Shown: positions 44,138 through 46,477 of the stretch, piece by piece
Layout of the letters: each line of letters opens with the position of its first letter
Position numbering within the stretch: position 1 is the first letter of the stretch
From: an uncultured Candidatus Saccharibacteria bacterium
GTDB lineage: Bacteria; Patescibacteriota; Saccharimonadia; Saccharimonadales; CAIOMD01
NCBI GenBank assembly: GCA_964566135.1
Contig: CAZMHM010000001.1
Span: 5,829 to 69,828 of the forward strand
DNA length: 64,000 nucleotides
Direction: 5' to 3'
Made by a program: the position numbers and the translations under genes
Notes under the pieces: model-generated
Databases searched by the model: none
Told to the model about the DNA's origin: nothing
Seen by the model: only the letters and a program-made list of their open reading frames with translations

Positions 44138-44212
44138 GCCGTCATAGCTCAGTGGTAGAGCACTTCCATGGTAAGGAAGGGGTCCCGAGTTCAAATCTCG
44201 GTGACGGCTCCA
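44138..44212 (+). tRNA. tRNA-Thr (anticodon GGU), CCA encoded
   Basis: Acceptor GCCGTCA/TGACGGC, anticodon stem CTTCC/GGAAG with loop ATGGTAA, T-arm CCGAG-TTCAAAT-CTCGG. Confidence 0.9.
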
Positions 44213-44409
44213 AGAAGATAATTACAATTATAATAAAGTTATTACGACTTGTCATGGCTCCTGAATTAGAAGAAGCGTACAAGAAATATCATAATTAACT
44301 AAAACGCACAACATACAATGTGCGACATAGCCGACAGTGAAAAATCTGTCGGTTTTTTGATTGCGCACTATGTCTTTCGCTGGTAAACTTTAGTAAATAA
44401 AGGGTGGCG

Positions 44410-44922
44410 ATGAAAGGGATTTTTATGGCTACCGATAATAAAAACATTGCAATCATCAAACAATCTATAAAAGAACAGAAGCTTATGTTTGAGTATACTA
44501 ATAATATTTACGACCAGCTTCGTATCAAGGCTCTTGCACTAATCGCGGGAGAGGTAGCGATACTAACCTTCTTGTTTAATACTTGGAATTTCAGACTTAT
44601 TTTAAAAGATAGTGATAGGATTTTCTTCTTCTTTACTGGTGTCGTGTTCATGGGTCTCGCGTTTGCTTTTCTTTTATGGATTATATCGACTGTACCTTGG
44701 AAGTTTCCTCACGATTTGCAGAGCGCAGACGCGCACCTGAATAATAAGAATTACGATAGTGAAGAGAGTTTTCTGAAAATTTTACATGATGACTACATCG
44801 TAGTGAATAAGCACAACTCGGAAATTGTCACTAACAAGTATAAAAAGTTTAATTGGACTATATTTCTACTTGCGGCAGGTGTTATAATAGTAATGGTTAT
44901 TAAATTCGGAGGGCCACAATGA
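44410..44922 (+). CDS. Hypothetical 3-TM membrane protein
   Basis: ATG at 44410 is preceded by AAGGGTGG. The gene is AT-rich and is flanked by two near-identical terminator hairpins (44330-44357 and 44973-44999). Confidence 0.5.
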   Translation: MKGIFMATDNKNIAIIKQSIKEQKLMFEYTNNIYDQLRIKALALIAGEVAILTFLFNTWNFRLILKDSDRIFFFFTGVVFMGLAFAFLLWIISTVPWKFPHDLQSADAHLNNKNYDSEESFLKILHDDYIVVNKHNSEIVTNKYKKFNWTIFLLAAGVIIVMVIKFGGPQ

Positions 44923-45133
44923 CAAGTAACGAAGTAACAATAATCCAATAAGAGTTTGAACGAGTGGAATAGCCGACAGAAAAATCTGTCGGTTTTTTTA
45001 TTCGGGGCTTTATTCTGCACACAGTTAGCACACCACTAACAGGGGCGGGTGTTAAAAATACTATTGCCAAAACTTTATATAATTGCTAATATTAATTCGT
45101 GGCGTCGACCCGAGGGGTCCATGGCCACACCAA

Positions 45134-45832
45134 TTAAGTCTTAAAAACCCAAACATCAAGATTTGAAGTTTTGACATCACTAGCGAGAGATTTAACTCTC
45201 GCTTTTTTGATTACATTGCTCAAAACGGATTTTTTTGCATCACCTGGTCCGGGTATCAACCCAGCGTTTAATTTGAATTCGTAAGCCACAGCTCCCAGTA
45301 ATAGGTCGGCAAGCTGAATCATTTCAACACCTTTTGAATATGCACGAATGACACCAAGGGCAGGATTGTGTTCAAATTTTTGATTTCGATTGATTTTACG
45401 CTTTACTAATGCTTCAAACTGAGTACCTTTTGGGACACTCAAGTCATCCATGATGAGCATTGCTGATTCTTTGCGGCCTAAATTCGCGCAAACTTGCATA
45501 GCGGCAAAGGAAGTATAGGCTGAGTACAAGTTTCCATTGAAATGCTCTTTCAGGTCAAGGTCTGATTTCTTAAAAATATAACAGCTGAACTTTGCTTTAT
45601 CGTAGGTAAAGAATAAGTCAACAAATTTATTAATTACGGGTGCATTTTTATTGTAAATTTTACTCCACTTTATCTCATCATAGAAGGAAAGTTCGTCGCG
45701 TAGTTGTTTAATGGCCTCAAATAACTCCTCGGGCTTTTGTACTTTTATCATGGCTACACCAAAAAACTTATCTCTGGGAGAATTTAGTAGACCAGTTTCA
45801 TCAAAAAAACAGAACTGAACATTTTTATCCAT
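45134..45832 (-). CDS. DUF3800-family protein
   Basis: The N-terminus FCFFDETGLLNSPRDKFFGVAMI and the YDEIKWSKI motif fit the DUF3800 pattern. Confidence 0.6.
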   Translation of the reverse strand: MDKNVQFCFFDETGLLNSPRDKFFGVAMIKVQKPEELFEAIKQLRDELSFYDEIKWSKIYNKNAPVINKFVDLFFTYDKAKFSCYIFKKSDLDLKEHFNGNLYSAYTSFAAMQVCANLGRKESAMLIMDDLSVPKGTQFEALVKRKINRNQKFEHNPALGVIRAYSKGVEMIQLADLLLGAVAYEFKLNAGLIPGPGDAKKSVLSNVIKKARVKSLASDVKTSNLDVWVFKT

Positions 45833-46101
45833 TAAGCTGATTATATACTCGTTAAGCCTCCTCTACCAGGAATCAAACAATATAACTTGAATTTAACTTT
45901 TAATAAGTTCATATTATTAATAGATTCGTACCTTTGTGCGCTGGCGGATGAGAATCCTCTCGAAAAAACGTCGAGTTAGTGCGTCCCTACATCCTTAGCT
46001 GTCCTCCTCAAAATCTATCTTTTAGGTTTTGAGGTGGGGACATAGCTTAAGGATGTGCGGGTTACGCCCCTAATACAAACGCACGATGAGGAGATGTTGA
46101 T

Positions 46102-46272
46102 ATGGTCCATTTTAAGGTCTATCAAGATACTTTAGGCGGATGGCGATGGCGTTTAATAGCAGCCAACAACTATATTGTTGCTGTTAGTAGCGAATCATAT
46201 GATTCAAAGCAAGGCGCAGTTGATTCCGCTGACTGGGTAAGGAGAAACGGGCCTACAGCTCCAATCTTCTAG
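46102..46272 (+). CDS. DUF1508 (YegP-like) small protein, 56 aa
   Basis: MVHFKVYQDTLGGWRWRLIAANNYIVAVSSESYDSKQGAVDSADWV fits the YegP repeat consensus. A GAGGAG ribosome-binding site lies upstream. Below the ORF-track cutoff. Confidence 0.6.
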   Translation: MVHFKVYQDTLGGWRWRLIAANNYIVAVSSESYDSKQGAVDSADWVRRNGPTAPIF

Positions 46273-46416
46273 TCCAGCTTCCGCCAGCGCATTGAGATAC
46301 GAATTAAAAGTACTCCATTGACAAACATAAGCGTCAGTGATATTATGCAACTGTACTTTTACAAGTAACATAGTCACTGTCGCTAGATTGTTTAATGTTA
46401 CTTATCTTTGTAAGAA

Positions 46417-46475
46417 GCCGTAGCACTTCCATGGTAAGGAAGGGGTCCCGAGTTCAAATCTCGGTGACGGCTCCA
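46417..46475 (+). pseudogene. Truncated tRNA-Thr(GGU) copy lacking the D-arm (attR-like repeat)
   Basis: GCCGT is joined directly to AGCACTTCC...GGCTCCA. Relative to 44138-44212, the segment CATAGCTCAGTGGTAG is missing. Confidence 0.7.
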
Positions 46476-46477
46476 AA

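Follow-up and report, generated by a model that had tools for sequence, protein, structure and literature searches.

We analyzed a 64-kb stretch of a Candidatus Saccharibacteria (Saccharimonadales) chromosome, hereafter the window, whose numbering is used throughout; L-numbers denote loci fetched for comparison. Between a tRNA-Thr(GGU) gene and the ribosomal protein gene rpmG, the window carries a small islet of accessory genes coding for a membrane protein, a DUF3800 protein and a DUF1508 protein, which is bracketed by a direct repeat of the 3' part of the tRNA gene. An earlier note, made from the letters of the sequence, had drawn attention to this arrangement. The features that define the two ends of the islet are as follows.

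44138-44212, plus strand: intact tRNA-Thr(GGU), forming the left, attL-like (attachment site) junction (ARAGORN; Rfam tRNA model, 69.5 bits)
46318-46346, plus strand: TTGACA-N17-TATTAT with TG, a strong sigma-70-like promoter located some 70 nt 5' of the pseudo-tRNA (consensus scan)
46417-46476, plus strand: pseudo-tRNA without a D-arm, GCCGT plus repeat copy 2 (46422-46476), forming the right, attR-like junction (sequence, repeat search, Rfam)
46477-46520, plus strand: native terminator, an inverted repeat that stands directly 3' of tRNA-Thr in the empty site (repeat search; L002 sequence)
46584-46787, plus strand: rpmG (Pfam match to L33)

A strain-variable insertion between tRNA-Thr(GGU) and rpmG

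The two copies of the repeat, 44159-44213 and 46422-46476, are identical at 55/55 positions in a repeat search and lie 2263 nt apart, start to start. Copy 1 consists of the 3' 54 nt of tRNA-Thr(GGU) plus one base. At the right junction GCCGT (46417-46421), which equals tRNA nt 1-5, is fused straight to AGCAC..., tRNA nt 22 onward, leaving a tRNA-Thr minus 16 nt of its D-arm, CATAGCTCAGTGGTAG. This downstream copy failed as a functional tRNA, scoring 24.6 bits with the Rfam tRNA model against a gathering score of 29 and drawing no call from ARAGORN. Counting one repeat copy, the inserted segment measures 2,263 bp (44214-46476); no other 2.2-kb stretch of the 64 kb is as low in GC as the islet, at 0.379 against a window median of 0.451, and the islet genes carry their own terminators and promoters (consensus scan). 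No integrase was detected across the 64 kb by tblastn with nine integrases of the family described below (best E=0.4), and Pfam scans of ten large open reading frames (ORFs) of the window and of the islet ORFs returned no integrase domain. The earlier note was thus borne out on the identical 55-nt repeat, the D-arm-less downstream copy with GCCGT joined to AGCAC, the AT-rich accessory genes in between (coding for DUF1508, for a protein that has three hydrophobic segments and, on the minus strand, for DUF3800) and the absence of an integrase.

The bracketed DNA is a strain-variable insertion. In L002, a 1.5-kb contig from another sample that was found through its exact L33 protein, the islet is missing and tRNA-Thr(GGU) is followed directly by the terminator and rpmG, which is the empty site that the earlier note had proposed looking for in relatives. 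L002 keeps the gene order of the window, namely tRNA-Thr(UGU), tRNA-Tyr, a 65-aa ORF, tRNA-Thr(GGU), terminator and rpmG, with flanks about 97-98% identical, and its terminator after tRNA-Thr is the one that follows the pseudo-tRNA in the window. The spacing in L002 is exactly that predicted from deleting 2,263 nt of the window. In the predicted empty-site junction tRNA-Thr runs directly into AACGCCCATAATGTA, and the predicted circular junction of the attP type (phage attachment site) is …GTAAGAAGCCGT, the 55 nt and GAAGATAATTAC…, which may also be written …TTTGTAAGAAGCCGT, the 55 nt and GAAGATAATTACAATT…

The synteny of a TPR gene, tRNA-Thr(UGU), tRNA-Tyr, tRNA-Thr(GGU), rpmG, GH15 and GH57 is kept across about 60 species representatives, and the gap between tRNA-Thr(GGU) and rpmG is mostly 40-300 nt in the roughly 50 Saccharimonadales species that have both genes on the same strand. 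Because these cross-species comparisons show short gaps, we take the empty state to be ancestral. The GH15 protein flanking the islet has homologues only in Saccharibacteria genomes, at 58-79% identity. The right junction recurs in an independent assembly, L001 (Logan SRR13208889), without a single difference in 3,080 nt. A tandem duplication of the tRNA gene on the spot is ruled out, since only GCCGT and the tRNA from nt 22 to its 3' end are repeated and the flanks are not; the alternative that the earlier note had set against its own reading, a local duplication shared by all relatives with no empty-site variants, therefore falls with these unduplicated flanks and the empty L002.

Integrase-bearing elements at the same site

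In relatives, elements that do carry an integrase use the same tRNA-Thr(GGU) site and the same junction position (L050, L092, L094 and L116). In L050 a tyrosine integrase of 317 aa (Phage_integrase, 2e-29) adjoins an aberrant tRNA-Thr copy beside rpmG, which reads GCCACC, the hairpin CCCTGTTTTACAAGGG, ATG and then AGCACTTCC..., and which diverges from the real tRNA at nt 21-22, no more than 1 nt from the left edge of the window repeat. The gene order in L094 is integrase, pseudo-tRNA, rpmG, GH15 and GH57, and in L092 it is prophage genes (one with endolysin-like PHROG matches), integrase and pseudo-tRNA. The L050 integrase has 503 homologues at E ≤ 1e-10, many of them on 30-46-kb contigs, and those with a named source belong to Saccharibacteria (including oral taxon 488) or to 'Caudoviricetes'; a search of GenBank phages (INPHARED) gave no match to the same integrase.

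In L095 and five IMG/VR contigs, a complete tRNA-Thr(GGU) stands about 280 nt downstream of the integrase gene (int). In L112 and L113 the module of int and tRNA lies between structural or uncharacterised phage genes (tail-like in L113; tail and lysis) and exonuclease or RecT genes, which, judged from gene order, is the classical attP position. A TTGACA-N17-TAnnAT promoter occurs in all of the int-to-tRNA spacers, that is, in L050, L092, L094, L095, L112-L115 and L142. When the leader between promoter and pseudo-tRNA in the window was aligned with these spacers, the promoter layout alone was common to them and no convincing homology was found. Within the 1.6 Mb of fetched loci, tRNA-Thr(GGU) with a non-canonical D region occurs only beside such integrases and in this islet. 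The integration hotspot of the earlier note holds for tRNA-Thr(GGU)/rpmG, given the prophages in L050, L094 and L092 and the attP in viral contigs, and for the tRNA-Tyr 'scars' that it had included nothing shows integration.

Two further observations concern the attP modules themselves. In distant members of the same integrase family (L131, L132, L135 and L137; IMG/VR), tRNA-Ala(GGC), tRNA-Ala(UGC) or tRNA-Lys(CUU) takes the place of tRNA-Thr about 260-300 nt downstream of int, so that the int-promoter-tRNA module appears to switch tRNA specificity within the family. The phage attP spacers (L112-L115, L142 and L095) also contain, ahead of the full tRNA on its upstream side, extra partial mimics of the tRNA D-stem and anticodon arm (in L112, for instance, GGATGAGCGCTACCGTGGTAAGCTAC), which may be integrase-binding sites.

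Origin of the islet

We favor, at a probability of roughly 60%, an origin of the islet by integrase-mediated insertion at a phage attachment site in the chromosome (attB), the integrase having since been lost or being supplied in trans. In this scenario a family of temperate phages of Saccharibacteria would attach to the chromosome at tRNA-Thr(GGU), the matching attP being a module of integrase, promoter and tRNA-Thr or tRNA-Thr-like sequence. Crossover inside the tRNA, from about nt 21-22 onward, would leave an intact tRNA at the left junction and, beside rpmG, a hybrid copy that owes its 5' part to the element. The phage body and integrase would then have been deleted, so that independent low-GC, moron-like cassettes remain between the att-like repeats; in a weaker variant, the cassettes would have been laid down between the repeats afterwards. 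We read the islet as an integration remnant because it combines a phage-type junction architecture with the lack of an integrase and of phage DNA. Likewise, GCCGT would stand at the right junction because the 5' part was inherited from a tRNA-like attP. That attP could have been a mimic whose D region was dispensable, or a full tRNA from which 16 nt were later deleted. For the cargo, a role in conflicts with phages or other elements is probable.

Several results weigh against this origin. Tblastn with the nine family members found no integrase remnant in the islet, and comparison of the islet with about 57 phage and prophage loci gave no nucleotide or protein (tblastx) similarity. In IMG/VR the cargo has no close relatives, with no match for DUF1508 and a single one, at 26% identity, for DUF3800, and the exact tRNA 3' part of the islet occurs in no viral contig there. 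The right junction of the window lacks the motif ...TTACAGTGGATG, ending at AGC, that precedes the junction in integrase-linked copies. We recovered no complete prophage that includes both of its junctions, and a 55-nt repeat made by this integrase family has therefore not been seen directly. The L002 contig is of low coverage, and a mis-join across the 55-nt repeat is possible. Finally, the tRNA cluster gathers diverse accessory genes across species without repeats or integrases, and hence other routes of gene gain act here. The tRNA-Thr repeat of the window is the only one at this site among 80 species representatives; enlarged tRNA-rpmG gaps in L022, L028, L029, L036, L063 and L077 are all without a repeat; and the hotspot ORFs of 34 species, diverse in cargo, include no integrase among the 25 of 43 families listed.

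This last group of results also feeds an explanation without any site-specific recombination, which we consider unlikely. Here a partial tRNA copy would have arisen by illegitimate recombination or uptake of foreign DNA, the cassettes would have entered by homologous recombination on the tRNA and rpmG flanks, and the agreement with att sites would be chance. The tRNA cluster between TPR and rpmG does behave as a general variable region, holding kinases, IS110 and metabolic genes with no repeats or integrases. Elsewhere, genes for DUF3800 and for PycTM-like proteins stand alone as cassettes in many different settings, and the window and L002 differ by two further indels within 1.2 kb upstream. 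Chance would, however, have to place the start of the repeat within 1 nt of the junction of three independent integrase-linked copies, keep the 5' acceptor bases GCCGT as expected from a tRNA-like attP partner, and duplicate the tRNA part alone and not its flanks.

It is similarly improbable, in our view, that the islet is a live element without an integrase, satellite-like or resembling a cis-mobilizable element (CIME), and that its two intact att-like repeats still let a tRNA-Thr phage in the same cell excise and integrate it in trans. Such mobilization would fit the 100% identity of the two 55-nt copies, the varying presence of the islet between strains whose flanks are about 97-98% identical, the retention of a phage-like end with promoter and pseudo-tRNA, and the circulation in the group of integrases that target tRNA-Thr. 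Yet the islet shows no similarity to phage attP arms, has no excisionase, replication or packaging functions and no integrase in 64 kb to serve it, and a 55-nt repeat could equally be lost by RecA-type recombination. An assembly artefact, in which a chimeric join in a metagenome-assembled genome created the islet or the repeat, is very improbable: this is a contig of that type and repeats are classic mis-join points, but L001, from another run, agrees at every one of 3,080 nt spanning the right junction, and identical DUF3800 and membrane proteins are recorded on a 263-kb NCBI contig.

Three cassettes between the junctions

Under the favored origin by phage-type integration, the cargo would be what the element left behind. 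It is organized as three independent cassettes and contains no complete known defence system. The features between the two junctions are listed below.

44214-44403, no strand: non-coding left end of the islet (promoter/terminator scan; folding)
44255 to 44227, minus strand: promoter-like candidate aimed antisense into tRNA-Thr (11/12 consensus positions; the promoter count of the region is not above shuffled expectation)
44305-44324 (minus strand) and 44329-44354 (plus strand): terminator-like hairpins, back to back (promoter/terminator scan)
44327-44362, plus strand: terminator repeat copy 1, ATAGCCGACAG..CTGTCGGTTTTTT (repeats; terminator scan)
44404-44922, plus strand: membrane protein with three hydrophobic segments (read from sequence), PycTM-like; 170 aa from the ATG at 44410 (public annotation)
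44969-45002, plus strand: terminator repeat copy 2, a near-identical twin that closes the membrane-protein cassette (repeats; terminator scan)
45092-45135, minus strand: conserved hairpin immediately after the DUF3800 stop codon; its core is 45099-45128, GTGGCCATGGACCCCTCGGGTCGACGCCAC (homologue alignment, covariation)
45134-45832, minus strand: DUF3800 protein, 232 aa, RNase H2-like fold (Pfam, PADLOC, AlphaFold, Foldseek)
45924-46304, plus strand: DUF1508 cassette within a 25-nt inverted repeat (repeat search)
45981-46060, plus strand: hairpin of about 80 nt, very stable, in the spacer between the divergent DUF3800 and DUF1508 genes (folding: -44.5 kcal/mol, z = -7.5)
46102-46272, plus strand: DUF1508 ORF, 56 aa, single YegP-type domain (Pfam 1.5e-13, 50.9 bits against a cut-off of 22)

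The DUF3800 protein is probably an RNase H2-like nuclease, as judged from its model. It matches Pfam PF12686 at 2e-10 (41.9 bits against a cut-off of 21), the PADLOC candidate PDC-M04A at 5e-23 over residues 8-219 of 232, and phrog_3732. No other islet protein matches a PDC-M04 model, and we found no literature on PDC-M04. The alignment of homologues shows D11, E12, D129, E140 and Q173-x-x-D176 to be invariant, so that the DE...QxxD signature is kept. The AlphaFold model has a pLDDT of 93.7 and its best Foldseek matches are RNase HII/H2 (E 2e-5), in agreement with the RNase H-like fold described for DUF3800 (PMC7736814 and PMC10910872); a PDB sequence search with the DUF3800 profile gave no match. 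PADLOC and structure prediction, both of which the earlier note had suggested running on the islet proteins, thus returned matches to PDC-M04A, PycTM and CBASS 2TM and an RNase HII/H2-like DUF3800 model. Homologues at 65-72% identity are solo genes in differing chromosomal contexts; where the cassette lies between rluD and der, the fetched loci contained no comparator for an empty site.

Membership in a type VII retron was considered for the DUF3800 protein and rejected, as there is no adjacent reverse transcriptase (RT). The nearest RT, at 16911-18119, lies 27 kb away, with RT_II-A as its best PADLOC match. This 402-aa retron-like RT (Pfam RVT_1 8e-14; RT_II-A 3e-28), whose neighbours have no PADLOC match, lies upstream of a run of short ORFs at 19008-34176 that we take, by layout alone, as ribosomal-protein operons.

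The membrane protein resembles, by profile matches, the membrane effectors of Pycsar and of cyclic-oligonucleotide-based antiphage signaling systems (CBASS), and could be an orphan protein of this effector type. PADLOC matches it to PycTM (1.5e-8) and to the CBASS 2TM effector (3e-6), and Pfam-A gives nothing at E ≤ 0.01; in precomputed annotation, PF18967 is listed unmarked for the identical public protein, is carried by several relatives and appears as 'weak' for one relative. Its likeness to PycTM and 2TM effectors lies in a hidden Markov model (HMM) match over the whole protein and in the three hydrophobic segments; it differs in that the islet has no cyclase and the HMM scores are weak. 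Pfam and PADLOC detected no cyclase (PycC) in the islet or the window. Its relatives occur singly, in contexts unrelated to one another, and three sets of them had no cyclase alongside; for lack of a cyclase we rejected membership in Pycsar or CBASS. On either side of the gene stands one of a pair of terminators, 34-36 nt long, whose sequence occurs nowhere else in the 1.6 Mb of fetched loci. The phage-defence flavour that the earlier note had seen in the cargo survives as HMM resemblance only (PycTM and the PADLOC candidate PDC-M04A), with no complete system and essentially no relatives in viral contigs. In the third cassette, the inverted-repeat arms at 45924-45948 and 46280-46304 are 84% complementary; the hairpin of about 80 nt stands inside this bracket, just upstream of the DUF1508 ORF, and has no Rfam match above noise.

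A conserved hairpin at the 3' end of DUF3800 genes

A hairpin is linked to the DUF3800 gene. When the 3' flanks of homologues were aligned, a 30-nt motif, GTGGCCATGGACCCYTCGGGTCGACGCCAC, stood 1-10 nt past the stop codon, with an invariant core and a variable loop. It is kept in spite of DUF3800 proteins that are only 43-72% identical and surrounding DNA that is unrelated, and it is present at the 3' end of every sequenced close or mid-range DUF3800 homologue. The hairpin was found in 9/9 homologue loci and in 0/86 other loci, and all of its metagenome matches (8/8) appear 3' of a DUF3800 gene, six by tblastn and two by eye from C-terminal coding sequence; IMG/VR contained none. Homologues at 37-40% identity have hairpin variants with compensatory changes, and in L163 the motif sits within the C-terminal codons. 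Across 13 distinct instances, 90% of cells are paired, against 31-38% in slid controls. At least three pairs covary (8-37, 9-36 and 18-28), and 0/500 shuffles reach the observed score. A covariance model run over 1.69 Mb finds only DUF3800 3' ends, always on the sense strand of the gene. In Rfam the hairpin matches no family; in particular, the hairpin regions of the window and of L162 had no match at E up to 10 to the DUF3800-I to -XI motifs in Rfam 15, where the presence of all eleven is unconfirmed.

The hairpin would most likely act as an RNA that DUF3800 binds or cuts, for autoregulation or as an antitoxin-like partner. More tentatively, and with less than even confidence, we propose that the DUF3800 gene and its hairpin could form a two-part nuclease-RNA module with a twelfth, uncatalogued motif that spreads as a unit between genomes and phyla. 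In such a module the hairpin, as part of the protein's own mRNA, would be recognised or processed by the protein, serving either to inhibit it in the manner of an antitoxin or as a cofactor in sensing invaders, and the islet would be a functional defence cassette lodged at the attachment site of a phage.

Two side observations touch on the hairpin. L162, a GC-rich sequence whose DUF3800 homologue is 37% identical, holds two copies of the hairpin variant 94 nt apart (3256-3392) with differing outer stems, a tandem arrangement that by analogy recalls repeated antitoxin RNAs. In the window, a candidate plus-strand small RNA lies antisense to the DUF3800 3' end and the hairpin (45064-45210, fold z = -4.3), with a promoter-like TTGCCA-N17-TAATAT at 45064-45092 and a terminator-like hairpin at 45182-45203 inside the DUF3800 coding end. 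It is plausible from consensus scans and folding, yet its flanks are not conserved in homologue loci.

Other variation around the tRNA cluster

The window also differs from L002 outside the islet. Between the TPR gene and tRNA-Thr(UGU), a 180-aa membrane protein with a weak DUF4234 match is encoded at 42558-43100; this gene is missing in L002, which has unrelated sequence to the left of window position ~43110, and it is the third strain-level difference within 4 kb. After tRNA-Tyr, at 43520-43852, the window contains two tandem units of about 166 nt, each ending in a copy of the tRNA-Tyr 3' end (24 nt, exact, at 43663-43686; partial at 43829-43842). In the folds of these units (z = -3.9 and -2.95), three hairpins are enclosed by a helix in which GGAUUCGA pairs with UCGAAUCC. 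L002 (559-731) has one unit fewer than the window, a 162-nt indel, and L007, from a different species, has a unit of like architecture after tRNA-Tyr (11169-11347), in which the first hairpin, CAACUGCYUGURGCAGUUG, is near-identical. These tandem units could be att scars or a small structured RNA. Partial 5' copies of tRNA-Trp (24-53 nt) found about 180-290 nt upstream of the real tRNA-Trp in L007 (~1991), L051 (~906), L058 (~5088) and L077 (~4805) suggest another tRNA-linked rearrangement site in Saccharibacteria.

Significance and relation to known elements

The islet is a clear case of accessory-gene gain and loss in the reduced-genome, host-dependent Saccharibacteria. The most interesting by-products of its analysis are the tRNA or tRNA-mimic attP of a phage family and the DUF3800-linked hairpin. 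The first identifies tRNA-Thr(GGU)/rpmG as the attB at which a family of temperate phages of Saccharibacteria integrates, with an attP that consists of a tRNA, or an imitation of one, driven by a promoter; a mapped attB could aid phage host assignment and could serve as a neutral integration site for genetics. As to the second, DUF3800 has been tied to unexplained structured RNAs since 2017, and a short, little-varying motif in a fixed position would be a simple substrate for tests of DUF3800 binding or cutting.

In type III toxin-antitoxin systems of the ToxIN type, a nuclease gene is paired with a structured RNA encoded in cis. The DUF3800 gene and its hairpin resemble them, by analogy only, in this pairing and in the two tandem copies of L162, and differ in that the hairpin lies downstream and not upstream of the gene and is usually present in a single copy. 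A further comparison is with eleven unrelated RNA motifs, DUF3800-I to -XI, that were linked to DUF3800 genes and whose function is unknown (Weinberg et al. 2017; PMC5737381). With these and with the DUF3800 effectors of type VII retrons (PMC7736814), the islet shares an RNase H-like DUF3800 gene with an adjoining conserved structured element. From the eleven motifs the hairpin differs in having no Rfam match and in being about 30 nt long, near-invariant, always at or overlapping the stop codon, and on the sense strand, and from type VII retrons the islet differs in its lack of an adjacent reverse transcriptase. From its alignment and position the hairpin looks like a further DUF3800-linked motif, unusually short and unusually constrained in sequence.

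Integration into tRNA genes is said to have been divided by Williams in 2002 into classes by sublocation, with some tyrosine-integrase phages reportedly targeting the anticodon-arm region. The phage family described here resembles these in its block of identity from the boundary of D-stem and anticodon stem to the tRNA 3' end and in having int beside attP. It differs in that its attP comprises either an entire tRNA gene or an imitation in which another hairpin replaces the D-arm, with a strong promoter of its own; the window itself holds att-like junctions only and no phage.

The closest counterparts of the islet as a whole are the CIMEs next to ICESt1 and ICESt3 in Streptococcus thermophilus, which are att-flanked islets without an integrase, and the remnants of prophages in tRNA genes. 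Like these, it has a direct repeat of a tRNA 3' end, with an intact tRNA at one end and a displaced 3' fragment followed by the native terminator at the other, and it has no recombinase inside, while integrase-bearing elements occupy the same site in relatives. Unlike them, it is only 2.2 kb long with no detectable leftover of a parent element, its right junction keeps five 5'-acceptor bases of a tRNA-like attP, and its host is a reduced-genome epibiont. The islet is a small att-flanked, integrase-less islet at a phage attachment site, of an ordinary kind and a fresh instance of it in a little-studied phylum.

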